DNA from: Terriglobia bacterium
GTDB taxonomy: Bacteria; Acidobacteriota; Terriglobia; 20CM-2-55-15
Assembly (NCBI GenBank): GCA_965198225.1
Contig: CBDAOY010000004.1
Location: 437,102 to 501,101 of the forward strand
Direction: 5' to 3'
Length of the DNA stretch: 64,000 nucleotides
Shown: one piece after another, positions 16,284 through 58,183 of the stretch
Layout of the letters: each line of letters begins with the position of its first letter
Position numbering within the stretch: the first letter of the stretch is position 1
The notes under the pieces: generated by a model
Database searches by the model: none
Told to the model about the DNA's origin: nothing
What the model saw: the letters and a program-made list of their open reading frames with translations, nothing else
Made by a program: the position numbers and the translations under genes

Positions 16284-16730
16284 CTACGGATTCGGCTTCG
16301 GTGTGATCTTGCCCGGAGCCGGTCGGTCGACCTTGGGGACTACTTCGAGCCCTTCACTCTTCCAGTCGCGGATACCGCAGAACTGGCCGGCGTTGTAGCC
16401 GGCATCGGCAAACTTTTTAGCAGCGCGCGACGCGCGCCCACCGCCAGCTCAGTAGAAAACCAGTTCGATATCCTTCGGGAGATCCGCCATACGGGCGTCC
16501 AGATCGCCCATGGGAATGTGGATGGCGCCTTTGATCGCACCGTGCTCCTCGAGTTCGTTGTCTTCGCGGACATCGATCAACAGGAACGTCTCGCCGCTGT
16601 CGAGTTTCTTCTTCAGCTCGGAAATGACGATGCGTTCCGTGTCCGATTGCTGGGCCGTCGCAGCGGCACCAAGGCCGACCACGAGTAAGCCCGCCGCGAC
16701 GACGAACGCTAACAGTCGCTTGTGGGACAT
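16284..16730 (-). CDS. Exported rhodanese-domain protein, predicted selenoprotein (UGA at 16449-16451)
   Basis: AGGAGG RBS, signal peptide, LIDVRE..GAIKGAIHIP..ELVFY-[TGA]-AGGGRASRAA..GIRDWKSEG to TAG; hairpin follows the UGA. Confidence 0.85.
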
Positions 16731-50258: not shown

Positions 50259-51577
50259 CAGTAGTGTCCGACAGATTTAGGACCTCCCGGTCCTAAAGTT
50301 AGAACTGACGCGATGTAGCGCGCTTGTCAAGGTGTTAACGATTTGATTTCTGTGCGGCCTTCGCGGCAGCCTTTCCAGAGGTTTCTGGGAGGCACCGATG
50401 CACGCTGGCAAGCTGGTCTTCGCACAAGTCATGGAGTTCGCGCCGTGGTATACGTTCCGTCGTCTGGTGACCAAGTACCGCGGCAATTTCAACGTCCGCA
50501 CATTCAGTTGCCTGGACCAGTTCCTATGCATGGCCTTCGCTCAGCTGACCTATCGGGAGAGCCTGCGCGACATTCAAGCCTGCTTGCGAGCCCAACCCGC
50601 CAAGCTCTACCACCTGGGGTTGCACGGGAAGGTCAGCCGCAGTGCATTGGCCGATGCCAACGAGTCTCGCGACTGGCGCATCTACGGAGAGTTCGCTCAG
50701 GCGCTGATCCGCATCGCACGCCGCTTGTATGCCCACGAGCCGCTCGGGATCGACCTGGACGAAACCGTCTACGCGCTCGACTCCACGATGATCAGTCTGT
50801 GCTTGTCGCTGTTCCCTTGGGCGCACTTTCGAAAGACCGAAGCCGCGGTGAAGCTTCATACGCTGCTCGACCTGCGTGGCGGTATCCCCAGCTTCATCCA
50901 CATCTCCGAAGGCAGGCTGCACGACGTCAACGTTCTCGACCTGCTCATCGCCGAAGCCGGTGCTTTCTACGTGATGGACCGCGGCTATCTCGACTTCGAT
51001 CGCCTCTACACCTTCAATCAAGCCGGGAGCTTCTTCGTCACCCGTGCTCGATCCGACTTCGCGTTCAAGCGCATCTACTCCCAACCCGTCGACCGACACA
51101 CGGGCCTCATCTGCGATCAGACTATCGAACTGACCGTATTTCGCTCCCGCCGCGGCTACCCCGAACGGTTGCGTCGCATTCGTTATCGCGATCCCGAGGG
51201 TCGGCGACTGGTTTTCTTGACCAATCACATGACGCTCCCAGCCCGGACCATCTGCGAGTTGTATCGCCTGCGCTGGCAGGTGGAGCTGTTCTTCAAATGG
51301 ATCAAACAGCACCTGCGCATCAAGCGTTTCTTCGGCACTTCCGAGAACGCCGTCAAAACTCAGGTCTGGGTCGCCGTGAGCGTTTACGTGCTGGTGGCTA
51401 TCGTGCGTAAAGAACTGAATTTGCCTTTGTCGTTGCACTCAATGTTACAGATCTTGAGTGTCACACCATTTGAGAATGTGCCTCTTTTTCAGCTGCTTAC
51501 CGAATCCGGGCTCATCTCAAATCGACACTCTAACGCTAACCAATTGAATCTATTCTGAAACGTGTCGGACACTACTG
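50259..51577 (+). mobile_element. IS4-family insertion sequence
   Basis: 15-bp IR CAGTAGTGTCCGACA / TGTCGGACACTACTG; 9-bp target duplication ACAAGTGAC (50250-50258, 51578-51586). Confidence 0.92.
50398..51558 (+). CDS. IS4-family transposase (DUF4372 + DDE)
   Basis: ALDST, VKLHTLLD, MDRGY, YRLRWQVELFFKWIKQHL. Confidence 0.94.
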   Translation: MHAGKLVFAQVMEFAPWYTFRRLVTKYRGNFNVRTFSCLDQFLCMAFAQLTYRESLRDIQACLRAQPAKLYHLGLHGKVSRSALADANESRDWRIYGEFAQALIRIARRLYAHEPLGIDLDETVYALDSTMISLCLSLFPWAHFRKTEAAVKLHTLLDLRGGIPSFIHISEGRLHDVNVLDLLIAEAGAFYVMDRGYLDFDRLYTFNQAGSFFVTRARSDFAFKRIYSQPVDRHTGLICDQTIELTVFRSRRGYPERLRRIRYRDPEGRRLVFLTNHMTLPARTICELYRLRWQVELFFKWIKQHLRIKRFFGTSENAVKTQVWVAVSVYVLVAIVRKELNLPLSLHSMLQILSVTPFENVPLFQLLTESGLISNRHSNANQLNLF

Positions 51578-51906
51578 ACAAGTGACGAGTAAGAACGAGG
51601 AACCGCCGGGTGCCCTCAAGCAGCCGGCACCCGACGCAGACGTCTTCATCTGACCGCCCGCTACCTTCGCCCTCGACAACAGCGGGACGGCCAGTTCGTC
51701 CCCAGGCAGGGGTCTCCGCATCTCGTTTTTGACTCTTTGTCCAGTCCGAGGGTCACCGACCTCTTCGCAAACCTCCGGCACACTGGGAAGTCGCTTTCGC
51801 ATGAGCGGTTTACCGTCGATTCAATCCGAGTCGCTTTGGAATCAAGAGTGCGGCTATCCCTACAGCGAGCCCTACTTTACGGAGTCTGGCAGAAAAGGAG
51901 AGTGCG

Positions 51907-52200
51907 ATGAGAAAAGCACTGGTCATGGTGCCGATCGTCGCCGGGGGTGTCATCCTGGGCCGCAGCCTGATGCCCGCCCCCTGGCGCCAACGCATCGCTC
52001 AGCTACCTGAGAATGTGGTGGGTTGGATGCTGGACCACATGCCCGACAACTGACCGTGAAAGGTCATCATGTCTGGCGTGAACCAGATACAGCTACAGAA
52101 CAAAGAGATGCTCTCGCTCATGATGCCCGAGGGGCGTATGAGGGAACCGGCCCAGGCTCCCACGAAAGAAGGAGGGAAGACCGATGTGGCCGATGCATGA
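51907..52200 (+). CDS. Unannotated small membrane-anchored protein, candidate selenoprotein with U-P-U motif
   Basis: AAGGAG RBS, ATG 51907, hydrophobic N-terminus, TGA at 52051 and 52057, then 46 open codons up to the SHOCT gene; SECIS-like hairpin at 52070-52089. Confidence 0.6.
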
Positions 52201-52402
52201 ATTCTGGGGAGGCGGCTTCTGGCTGTTTCCACTGCTTTTTCTTCTGGTGATGGTCGTCTGCGTCCTTCGGTTTGGTCGGATGCCCGGTCAGGCTGGGATG
52301 CCAAAAAGTGGCGACCCTCCGCTGGAGATTGCCAAGCGTAGATTCGCAGAAGGAGAAATCAGCAAGGACGAATTCGAGACGATCAAGAGGACGCTCGCCT
52401 GA
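52184..52402 (+). CDS. SHOCT domain membrane protein
   Basis: TM helix then PLEIAKRRFAEGEISKDEFETIKRTL; GGAGG RBS. Confidence 0.88.
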   Translation: MWPMHEFWGGGFWLFPLLFLLVMVVCVLRFGRMPGQAGMPKSGDPPLEIAKRRFAEGEISKDEFETIKRTLA

Positions 52403-52424
52403 ACCCGTTCCGGCTTGGTCCTTG

Positions 52425-53993
52425 CTAATTCTTGCTGACGAGAAAGGGCTTCAGCGACGCGTTGTAGTTTGGGTGCCGGAGTTTCCGGAGCGCCCGTGCT
52501 TCGATCTGCCGGATGCGTTCACGGGTCAGGTCGTAGATCTGGCTGATCTCTTCCAGCGTGTGTTCCCGGCCGTCTTCGAGGCCGAAGCGCAAACGGATGA
52601 TCCGTCGCTCGCGCGCATCGAGCCGGCTCAACACGTCCTCGGTCACGCGCCTCATACTTGCTTCGACTACCTTGTCGTCGGGTGACGGAGAGTTGTCGTC
52701 GCAGATGAACTTTCCGATGGGCGAGTCCTGCTCCTGGGAGATCGGAGCTTCGAGCGAGATCGGCGTCTGCGCAGACCGTCGGATGAACTCGACCTTCGAA
52801 ACGGGAATCTCCATTTTCGCCGCGATCTCGTCCTCGGTCGGCTTCCGGCCGAGTTCCTGCAGGAGCGTCCGGGAGGCACGTGTCAGCTTGTTGATGGTCT
52901 CGATCATGTGGACCGGAACCCGTATCGTTCGGGCCTGGTCGGAAATCGCTCGCGTTATCGCCTGGCGGATCCACCATGTGGCGTACGTGGAGAACTTGTA
53001 GCCGCGACGGTAGTCGAACTTCTCGGTCGCGGTCATCAGGCCGATATTTCCCTCCTGAATCAGATCGAGGAAGTGCAGGCCCCGGTTGTGGTACTTCTTC
53101 GCGATGGAAATCACCAGACGCAAGTTTGCCTCGATCAACTGTCGGCGGCCCTGTTCGATCTCAAACTGTGCGGCTTCGATCTTTCGGTGGACCCGGCGGA
53201 TCGTTCTCGCATCGGTCTTTGACTCTCTCGCGATCTCTCGTATGGCCGACCGGGTGGCCCGCACTTCCTTCCGGACGCTCGCACTGTTCTCCCTGGCCTG
53301 GAGGTCTTCCAGGTTTCTTTCCAGGCCGGACAGTTCCTCCCCCGTCGTGCGAACCTGGTCGACGAGGCGGGTACGCTCGATCTTGGACAGGTTCAAGCTG
53401 CGAAACTTCCGCGACAGCAGCACCGACTCCCGCCCCAGTTTCCACTTCAACCTGCGGAGTTCGGCCGCCTTCCCCCTCTTGGGCATCGCATCGACTCTGG
53501 CGCGGAGGCGGGACACCTGACGGTACTGCCGGGCGATCTCGGCGATGGCCTCCAGCCGATCACCGCAGCGCTCTTCGAGTTGGTCCGGCAGCTCCGTTTC
53601 CTGCCATACAAATGCCCGATGCACGATCTGGGGCTCGTCTTTGAGTCTCTTTCCGAACTCGATAATCTGTTCGATCACCATGGGGGCCCGTGACAGAGCG
53701 GTTAGGACATCGCGCCGTCCCCCCTCCATCCGTCGCCCGATCTGTTGCTCGCCGGCGCGGGTCAACAGCGGTACGGTGCCGCTGCGGTTGAGATACATCC
53801 GCACTGGATCGACAGCTCCGCCCGTGGCTTCCGGCGAGACTTCGAGCCGATCGTCCGGCGACTCTTCGTCTTCGAAAGACCCTGGTTCCCAGGGATTGCT
53901 GTCTCGAGGGTCTCGATCGATTCCGATCGGCGACAACTGTTCACTCTCGTCGTCGGGCCGATCGCCCTCGGCGATTTCCAGTAACTGTTCCAT
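52425..53993 (-). CDS. RpoD-like sigma70 factor (no evident region 1.1; probable paralog)
   Basis: [53 protein letters not shown]. Confidence 0.92.
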
Positions 53994-56783: not shown

Positions 56784-57029
56784 GGAATTCACCGCCCGCT
56801 TGGACGCGGGCTTCTCCAGGACCCCCTCCCCTCGATCTGTTTTGGATAAGGATGGTCCGAAATAGCATCTCGCTACGTGAGGTGGGCTCACACAGCCGGT
56901 GAGTCGCTCTTACCTCTTATGGAAGATTTTCTGTGGAAGCACTGCGAGATTGTGAGGCTCCAGCACGTATATTTATTGAAGGACTTACGGCAAGCGGCCG
57001 AGGACCTGGTTTCGACAAGGAGTTGAGTT

Positions 57030-57230
57030 TTGACAAAACTGTTTCGTTCCCAGACCGACAAGAAGATTGCCGGCATCTGCGGCGGAATCGCGGAGGCCTA
57101 CGTGCTCGACTCGAATCTGGTTCGAGTCGCCCTGGTTTTCCTTGGACTCGCTACCGGAGGGATACCCTTCCTGATTGCTTATCTGGTCGGTTGGATCATC
57201 ATCCCAATCGGTTCTCGACACGTCGAATGA
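57030..57230 (+). CDS. PspC domain protein
   Basis: KLFRSQTDKKIAGICGGIAE..AYLVGWIIIP; TTG start after AAGGAG. Confidence 0.9.
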   Translation: MTKLFRSQTDKKIAGICGGIAEAYVLDSNLVRVALVFLGLATGGIPFLIAYLVGWIIIPIGSRHVE

Positions 57231-58183
57231 CACCCAAGCGACCGCGTCGCGTCCGTATCGGCATCTCGACCTGCCTGCTCGGAGACCGGGTCCGCTATGA
57301 TGGGGGCCACAAGCGCGACACCTTCCTCGTCGACCGTTTTGGGAAATATGTCGAATGGGTGCCTGTCTGTCCCGAGGTAGAGGCGGGGATGTCGATACCC
57401 AGGGACTTCCTCCGACTGGTCGACGTCGGCGGGGAGGTTCGGATGGTCGCGCCGAACACGGGCCGGGACCACACGGCACAGATGCGGCGTTTTGCCCGGG
57501 CGCGCGTGCGGACGCTGTCGCAGGAAAGTCTGTCCGGGTACATCTTCAAGCGCAGTTCGCCGTCCTGCGGCGTCGAGCGGGTCAAGGTCTACAGAGACGG
57601 AATCCCAGGCGGAAGGGGCCGCGGCCTGTTCGCCTCGGCGTTGATCGAGGCGAGCCCCACCCTGCCGGTGGAAGAAGAGGGGCGGTTGAACGACCCCCGG
57701 CTGCGGGAGAACTTCGTGTCCCGCGTCTTCGCGCACCATCGCTGGCACGAGTTGGGTCGAAAAACCCGCAAGGCAATGATGGAATACCACGCCGCACACA
57801 AATTCGTGTTGATGTCGCACAGCCAGCAGGGCATGCGGCGGCTGGGTGCGATGCTGGGCGGGGCAAAGGAGTATCCCGGAACGCGGGAGCTGACGGACGC
57901 CTACTGGGCGGAGTTCTCCGAGATCATGAAGCGAACGCCCTCACGCCGCAATCACACGAACGTGCTGCAGCATATCGCCGGGTTCGTTTCCGACAGGATC
58001 GACGCCGAGGATCGTGCCGAACTGCAGCAGGCGATCGAGCACTACCGACTGGAGCTGACGCCCTTGATCGTCCCCGTGACCCTGTTGCGTCACTACGTGC
58101 GGCGGCTGCGGATCGGGTACCTGCAGGGCCAGGTCTATCTCGATCCGCACCCGGATGAACTGATGTTGTTGAACCAGCTGTGA
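57227..58183 (+). CDS. DUF523-DUF1722 (YbbK/YbgA) fusion, TudS-like desulfidase domain
   Basis: STCLLGDRVRYDGGHK, VCPEVE, SPSCG, EEEGRLNDPRLRENF, HTNVLQHIAG. Confidence 0.9.
   Translation: MTPKRPRRVRIGISTCLLGDRVRYDGGHKRDTFLVDRFGKYVEWVPVCPEVEAGMSIPRDFLRLVDVGGEVRMVAPNTGRDHTAQMRRFARARVRTLSQESLSGYIFKRSSPSCGVERVKVYRDGIPGGRGRGLFASALIEASPTLPVEEEGRLNDPRLRENFVSRVFAHHRWHELGRKTRKAMMEYHAAHKFVLMSHSQQGMRRLGAMLGGAKEYPGTRELTDAYWAEFSEIMKRTPSRRNHTNVLQHIAGFVSDRIDAEDRAELQQAIEHYRLELTPLIVPVTLLRHYVRRLRIGYLQGQVYLDPHPDELMLLNQL

Follow-up and report, generated by a model that had tools for sequence, protein, structure and literature searches.

Positions 51907–52200 of the window, the 64,000-nucleotide stretch of a Terriglobia genome analysed here, probably (about 70%) carry a genuine di-selenoprotein gene, in which both in-frame UGA codons (residues 49 and 51) would be read as selenocysteine (Sec, U). 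The product would be a 97-residue, membrane-anchored, three-helix protein, with a U-P-U centre at the start of helix 3. An initial annotation, made from the sequence alone, had proposed a protein of this kind, and we found the ribosome-binding site, the TGA-Pro-TGA frame, the 46 codons that follow and the overlap with the start of a SHOCT-domain gene as it had described them. It had also counted the open frame, which runs from the second TGA up to the TGA at 52198–52200, as evidence. This point is weaker than it had stated, as the open frame is not significant on its own: three of the six frames were stop-free in the 138 nt past the second TGA, both in the window and in a related genome (G024). 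Because the open frame alone was at chance level, and a hairpin downstream of the UGAs was by itself modestly unusual, the argument rests on the relatives.

The gene was present in two of 34 genomes from the same taxonomic family, the genome carrying the window (G000) and G024, which belongs to a different genus. In G024 we found the same gene pair, with TGA-CCG-TGA in place, an open reading frame (ORF) of equal length and the same overlap. Between the two genera the nucleotide sequences were 77% identical, the small proteins 65% and the SHOCT proteins 68%.

A protein-database search with the single protein as query gave nothing. When 1.84 billion representative proteins were searched exhaustively with a profile, 25 matched, and 17 of these were full-length proteins of 77–164 residues that read across the stop site. 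At the U-P-U columns these 17 had SPP (nine proteins), LPP and APP (two each), and FPP, HPV, LPQ and CPC (one each). Five of the other eight matches were proteins of 47–51 residues, ending right before the first column, and two were downstream pieces of 43 residues; the last was a repeat protein, rejected as unrelated. Past the site, every full-length member had the motif K-x-x-M-S-x-L-x-R-x-x-E-Q-N-x-E-I-x-A-L-L, and K52 and S56 were at least 90% conserved in the family.

To locate this C-terminal part in the DNA, a profile was built from 103 stop-free homologues, with the window and G024 left out, and searched against 2209 six-frame stop-to-stop pieces from the window and 16 kb of G024. The best two pieces both began at the first codon after the second UGA, with E-values of 2.5e-7 (G024) and 1.2e-5 (window), and all remaining pieces had E > 1. 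Since the profile match starts right after the second UGA, the region past the TGAs is homologous coding sequence in the same frame. The conservation past the UGAs for which the initial annotation had proposed to look was therefore present.

A profile search for short forms gave 75 proteins (clusters at 90% identity), 33–98% identical to the N-terminal part encoded in the window. In all except one (74 of 75) the last residues were (M/I)-P-(D/E)-x, so that the protein stopped right before the first U column; N-terminal lengths were 41–85 residues. By their labels, one short form is from a Dehalococcoidia metagenome-assembled genome and one Ser-Pro-Pro member from Chloroflexi. Judged by these alignments, this is a large family of small proteins, which mostly carry Ser-Pro-Pro, with a sizeable subfamily (gene calls of 47–59 aa) that stops at the same column. 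One of the 140 stop-free homologues, P0006, had Cys-Pro-Cys at the U-P-U columns, and in blastp with its N-terminal part the top 24 matches were all truncated forms. Sec normally alternates with Cys, and the position of P0006 among the truncated forms fits a Sec/Cys pair within that subfamily.

The short forms also bear on the main rival explanation, namely that the real product is a 48-residue membrane peptide closed by a fail-safe tandem stop. The downstream 130 nt would then be either re-initiated, at the ATG 52069 in the window and at a GTG three codons later in G024, or an RNA element, whose hairpins would control SHOCT translation. We consider this unlikely. Gene callers did give separate 48-aa and 43-aa ORFs in several genomes, and the 74 short forms were found in the databases without a downstream piece. 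The profile match, however, starts upstream of any restart codon and includes K52 and S56, and the ATG of the window is ATA in G024. Moreover, the EQN.E.LAL motif was kept across four lineages, which would be unexpected if it was untranslated. The downstream helix of the metagenomic contig X17 (see below) and the downstream piece of P0016, from the fourth lineage, were both nearer to the family consensus (EQNEE.IAL for the latter) than that of the window. Finally, the recurrent stop falls exactly at the column where one relative has Cys. Beyond this helix the small protein has a tail that is variable across the whole family and without coding signature, a point for the tandem stop. The ribosome-binding site and start of the SHOCT gene overlap with its end, KEGG.TDVA, and account for the conservation there.

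Further DNA came from public metagenomic runs, as the contigs X11, X17 and X14; the runs listed for this region included none of RNA. X11 spanned 51946–52123 with seven differences to the window, none of them before 52092. X17 covered the whole gene pair with 88% identity, and no difference was listed for it in 52033–52091. X14 comprised two short contigs from distant relatives, which aligned to 52027–52092 only and whose flanks translated in frame to family motifs. One X14 contig had deletions totalling 6 nt at 52137–52148, in the variable tail, and kept the frame.

Within the gene pair, the differences were unevenly spread. In 52033–52091 G024 differed at 5 of 59 positions, compared with ~25% elsewhere (binomial P ~1e-3), and X17 at 0 of 59, compared with ~13.5% elsewhere (P ~2e-4). 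The block with the TGAs and the hairpin was therefore the best conserved part, synonymous sites included, which an RNA signal embedded in coding sequence would be expected to show. In the N-terminal part, the changes between the window and G024 comprised 12 synonymous and 12 non-synonymous codons, and this frame was the best of the six.

These patterns argue against a decaying pseudogene, that is, a former Ser-Pro-Pro member with nonsense mutations and no full-length product. Such decay could be suspected from the patchy presence of the gene (two genomes in the taxonomic family), from its location beside an insertion sequence (IS) and from its absence at the matching site of a genome from the same genus. 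However, both TGAs, the frame and the exact length were kept between two genera as far apart as those compared here, the N-terminal part was under purifying selection, and the surroundings of the stops were conserved better than anything else in the pair. In addition, independent decay would not put the stop of dozens of diverged homologues into one and the same column. We regard a pseudogene as very improbable.

The candidate Sec insertion sequence (SECIS) has its arms at 52070–52076 and 52083–52089, with 7 bp, including one G-U, and a 6-nt loop of C-G-U-G-A-A. It lies 23 nt from the first UGA and 17 nt from the second, exactly as the initial annotation had described. The general model of bacterial SECIS elements, that of Zhang and Gladyshev as summarised in a 2026 review (PMC13188914), gives a loop of 3–9 nt, a stem of 4–16 bp, a G at loop position 1 or 2, with G or U as the usual next letter, a distance of 16–37 nt from UGA to loop and a minimum free energy of −7.5 kcal/mol or lower. 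The hairpin lies within all four published constraints for both UGAs, and the claim that both codons have the proper spacing stands. Counted from the U of the UGA, the loop begins at +27 for the first codon and at +21 for the second. In 10 of 12 other folded genes with in-frame TGA from the same genome the loop started at +20 to +29, so one hairpin is acceptably placed for both codons. A placement like that of the other SECIS elements of this genome also counts against the tandem stop.

The only change within the stem in G024 turned the G-U pair into A-U, and in X11 and X17 the hairpin was unchanged. A second, small hairpin encloses the UGAs, and the loops of both contain GUGAA. The extended fold of this upstream hairpin (52041–52077) is an alternative to the SECIS hairpin and competes with it. 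Its pair C52047-G52071 is U-A in G024, one compensatory double change between the two sequences compared; we take it as a lead, not a finding. Two hairpins with similar loops, and an alternative fold with a compensatory change, are what control of SHOCT translation by RNA structure might look like, and in this respect they favour the tandem stop. An Rfam scan of 51700–52500 gave chance-level matches only and no family.

The genome carrying the window has a full set of Sec genes. We detected selA (537 bits), selB (387 bits), selD (373 bits) and tRNA-Sec (72.9 bits), all above the curated cut-offs, and selD has itself one in-frame TGA within the gene. In G024, selA and selB were above the curated cut-offs. 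In the genome of the window, an in-frame TGA occurs in at least 12 further genes; matches with a single in-frame TGA comprised nine to AhpC/TSA, above the family cut-off, and one deiodinase-like. In the window, a rhodanese match (PF00581, 51.5 bits) at 16392–16622 on the minus strand has one in-frame TGA, in the context ELVFY-U-AGGGR, with a G+C-rich hairpin downstream. This is probably the separate Sec candidate that the initial annotation had cited in support of Sec usage, and both that candidate and the Sec machinery were thereby recovered. Such heavy use of Sec speaks against the tandem stop. An alternative genetic code was rejected, as 2350 long ORFs of this genome end in TGA.

Outside the window, genes with in-frame TGA were located on contigs C3, C5, C7, C8 and C9, and the genome looks rich in selenoproteins. 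Two of its AhpC/TSA genes (C7:30136–30525 and C3:140222–140611) had near-identical downstream sequence. A second match to the tRNA-Sec model (C7:993207–993292, minus strand; 47.5 bits, gathering score 47) may be a long-arm tRNA of another kind. The window also encodes, at 56933–58183 on the plus strand, a 2-thiouracil desulfurase (PF04463, formerly DUF523) with a DUF1722 domain, in an uninterrupted ORF of 416 codons. A table of the 2026 review (PMC13188914) counts PF04463 proteins among the selenoprotein families.

In the mechanism that we propose, SelB bound to the hairpin at 52070–52089 would bring Sec-tRNA to the first UGA, and two codons later another SelB complex, on the same hairpin, would serve the second UGA. 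The hairpin would be at the usual distance from the second codon, and 6 nt farther from the first. Failure of recoding at either UGA would free a membrane peptide of 48 or 50 residues. We infer the actual Sec insertion, the use of a single hairpin for both codons and the function. A variant, in our view improbable, is a selenium-gated switch with two products. Without recoding the 48-residue peptide would be made, and with recoding the di-Sec protein would be made, and only in that case would the ribosomes reach the SHOCT start. SHOCT translation would then be coupled to Sec decoding, and a structural Ser-Pro-Pro turn would have become a vicinal diselenol.

Several observations weigh against the insertion of Sec at both UGAs. 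First, 139 of the 140 full-length stop-free homologues had non-Cys residues at both columns (SPP 119, HPV 6, LPP 5, APP 4, FPP 3, MPP 1, LPQ 1). The second column was Pro in at least 90% of the stop-free homologues, and otherwise V, Q or, in P0006, Cys. As most members carry Ser-Pro-Pro, the U-P-U positions are not essential to the core function of the family. The lack of Cys at both columns in most homologues favours a tandem stop, and the sense codons there would equally suit a pseudogene. The initial annotation had named non-Cys residues in homologues, combined with no UGA in relatives, as the sign of a pseudogene; the residues were indeed non-Cys, whereas the UGAs were kept in G024, X11 and X17, so only half of this picture applies.

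Second, the tree of the N-terminal part (48 columns) mostly lacked resolution and had no clean Sec clade, with the truncated forms interleaving with LPP, APP, LPQ and HPV forms. The full DNA comparison consisted of two genomes plus the difference tables for X11 and X17, and ~70 other short forms were known as protein only. X17 had an uncompensated 1-nt deletion at 51977 (codon 24), and the 48-aa N-terminal part of its lineage had no match among the 75 short forms; a pseudogene in this lineage or an error in the contig could account for this, and the deletion is a further point for decay of the gene.

Third, after the second UGA the changes between the window and G024 comprised 4 synonymous and 21 non-synonymous codons, evenly spread over the codon positions, and constraint at protein level was visible in codons 52–72 only. 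Fourth, the folding energy of the hairpin (−7.5 kcal/mol) is exactly at the limit of the bacterial SECIS model, and an equally good hairpin occurs at 3–4% of ordinary TGA stops. Among 2350 such stops of long ORFs in this genome, a stem of at least 7 bp was found in the same position range at 2.9%, and a hairpin of −7 kcal/mol or lower at 4.4%. Last, Sec recoding in E. coli is given as 30–40% per event (PMC4513850), and two successive recoding events would be inefficient.

The AlphaFold2 model of the protein had moderate confidence, with a mean predicted local distance difference test (pLDDT) of 67. It comprised a hydrophobic helix (residues 3–20), an amphipathic helix (24–43), the loop HMPDN-U and a helix (50–72) starting from P-U-K. 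The tail had pLDDT < 50 and is probably disordered. In this model the two Sec would be at the N-terminal end of helix 3, near M41, H44 and M45, and many short relatives read MM..MMEHMPD. Our best guess, by analogy, is that the protein binds a soft metal such as Cu(I), Ag(I) or Hg(II) through a vicinal diselenol with neighbouring Met and His residues (M..HMPDN-U-P-U); alternatively, the UxU pair could be redox-active like CxC. Such a soft-metal site or redox-active pair would probably have arisen within the U-P-U/C-P-C subfamily. The metal/redox proposal rests on motif composition and is weaker than the initial annotation had stated.

The SHOCT match of the downstream gene (PF09851, 32.8 bits, cut-off 27) covered residues 46–71 of 72, i.e., the C-terminus, and the protein has one transmembrane helix. 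Compared with G024, the gene had 15 synonymous and 23 non-synonymous codon changes, with an excess at third positions. The two proteins may work together, as the conserved overlapping gene pair suggests. SHOCT had no known function in the study of Eberhardt et al. (2013, PMC3581485), where oligomerisation was unsupported by the study's own test. A full-text literature search gave no paper pairing “SHOCT” with “selenocysteine”.

Nucleotide homology to G024 was limited to 51893–52411, from the ribosome-binding site to just beyond the SHOCT stop, and the flanks were unrelated. In the window these were an IS4/IS5-type IS and a sigma-70 gene, and in G024 genes for RecQ, a DUF5916 protein and a small membrane protein. 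G002, from the same genus as the genome of the window, had an orthologue of the sigma-70 gene and no copy of the gene pair in the 1.4 kb examined next to it. The confined homology, the different flanks and the site without the pair in G002 indicate that the two genes travel as a self-contained cassette. In G002 (locus L056; 761–1285 and 1437–3020) the sigma-70 orthologue is followed by an unrelated ORF of 174 aa in place of cassette and IS, so the cassette is accessory at the window site. The IS (50259–51577) is complete, with terminal inverted repeats of 20 nt that are 90% complementary and a transposase of 386 aa (DUF4372 + DDE_Tnp_1); 316 nt separate its right end from the downstream cassette. 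We rejected the cassette as a part of this IS, as it lies outside of it. We also rejected an antisense ORF at 51999–52304, because the substitution pattern favours the plus frame and the SHOCT gene is on the plus strand. The features of the locus are listed in Table 1.

Table 1 Features of the candidate di-selenoprotein cassette in the window.
Feature	Position	Strand	Basis and remarks
Ribosome-binding site AGGAGA	51896–51901	+	Read directly; 6 nt 5' of ATG 51907; kept in G024
N-terminal 48 codons	51907–52050	+	Helices at residues 3–20 and 24–43, then loop HMPDN
First in-frame UGA, residue 49, proposed Sec	52051–52053	+	Kept in G024, X11, X17
CCG, Pro50 between the UGAs	52054–52056	+	Pro invariant in 105-sequence family alignment
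Second in-frame UGA, residue 51, proposed Sec	52057–52059	+	Kept in G024, X11, X17
Continuation after the UGAs: helix 3 (KVIMSGVNQIQLQNKEMLSLM), then variable tail	52060–52197	+	C-terminal profile match
Candidate SECIS hairpin, stem TGTCTGG/CCAGATA, loop CGTGAA	52070–52089	+	Folding; ΔG −7.5 kcal/mol
Small upstream hairpin TGACC-GTGAAA-GGTCA, enclosing both UGAs	52051–52066	+	Folding; extendable to 52041–52077
SHOCT gene ribosome-binding site AGGAGGG, within the tail of the small ORF	52170–52176	+	Read directly; surrounding block kept in G024
SHOCT-domain membrane protein gene, 72 aa, ATG 52184	52184–52402	+	PF09851, 32.8 bits
Stop TGA that ends the read-through frame, 14 nt into the SHOCT ORF	52198–52200	+	Read directly

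Beyond the taxonomic family the gene was rare. In a sample of 400 genomes from the class we found it only in G000 and G024, plus a weak match in G010 (E 1.3e-4, internal TAG), and in a sample of 401 genomes from the phylum only in G000, plus five weak matches (E 0.0014–0.0099). A search of a genome collection with the small protein gave 149 pattern matches, none of them confirmed. A degenerate DNA pattern across the TGAs had no match in the genome contig collection, and a related pattern had none in viral contigs. With tblastn, P0001 and P0011 found nothing among plasmids. Two metagenome loci (L049 and L050) were rejected as relatives, as they were intergenic with a chance HMPDNCP match (the patterns used Cys codons).

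As the initial annotation had supposed, the protein belongs to no described family that we could find. Pfam, NCBIfam, PADLOC, PHROGs and the PDB sequences held no family for any member tested: NCBIfam gave none at E ≤ 1 for P0001, P0002 and P0006, and Pfam none at E ≤ 1 for P0001 and P0006. A search of the ESM Atlas gave unnamed clusters only (best score 0.90). The family was absent from the text of the 2026 catalogue table (PMC13188914) and from NCBIfam release 20 with its many selenoprotein models, the comparison having covered neither the BSepDB supplement (PMC13326102) nor Haft and Tolstoy 2025. In our assessment the protein represents a new selenoprotein family whose Sec arrangement is unusual. 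The claim of novelty held for the family and not for the motif, as UxU had already been predicted once. A literature search for “selenocysteine” with “UXU” gave one relevant paper, on a different family (PMC1976440).

That paper predicted the UxU form in a rhodanese-related sulfurtransferase from the metagenome of an Olavius symbiont. It agrees with our case in the U-x-U spacing, with two UGAs 6 nt apart, and in its bacterial origin. The fold differs (there was no PF00581 match here), and the second Sec there is beside the catalytic Sec or Cys. Other close pairs are the predicted two-Sec UxxU families, i.e., the metal-binding NF041115, the FmdB-family TIGR02605 and a UxxU Prx-like family (PMC13188914). 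These likewise have two Sec within a few residues and presumably one downstream SECIS, and one is annotated as metal-binding. Here, in contrast, the spacing is UxU, the product would be a membrane-anchored helical microprotein, and P0001, P0002 and P0006 had no NCBIfam match. As far as we found, all close Sec pairs elsewhere are predictions, with no experimental test in the literature examined.

With bacterial selenoprotein genes in general, the candidate shares the in-frame UGA, an in-ORF stem-loop with G then U, the spacing of 16–37 nt and the full Sec set. It differs in having two UGAs 6 nt apart that would share one hairpin, and in the Ser/Pro of most homologues. The X-Pro-X spacing has further parallels: P1B-type heavy-metal ATPases have a CPx transmembrane metal site, and Mia40 has a redox-active CPC. 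P0006 reads C-P-C as well, and the motif is at a modelled helix start. No Pfam, NCBIfam or PDB-sequence match accompanied this resemblance, which is a likeness of motif only. SHOCT-domain proteins are represented by the downstream gene, with its single transmembrane helix and C-terminal SHOCT domain.

We place the importance of the finding below that of a new mechanism, as well over 100 prokaryotic selenoprotein families are known, UxU was predicted before and the function is a guess. If true, the reading brings to light a selenoprotein family whose members current pipelines cut to 47–51 residues; public databases list at least 74 such gene calls (90% identity clusters) as “hypothetical protein”. 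Two Sec one residue apart would here share one SECIS in a natural gene, so that a long-assumed way of decoding could be tested directly by a simple reporter. Uncharacterised SHOCT membrane proteins would gain a conserved partner gene. The family would also have taken an unusual evolutionary course, in which Sec and Cys replaced Ser and Pro, not an ancestral catalytic Cys.

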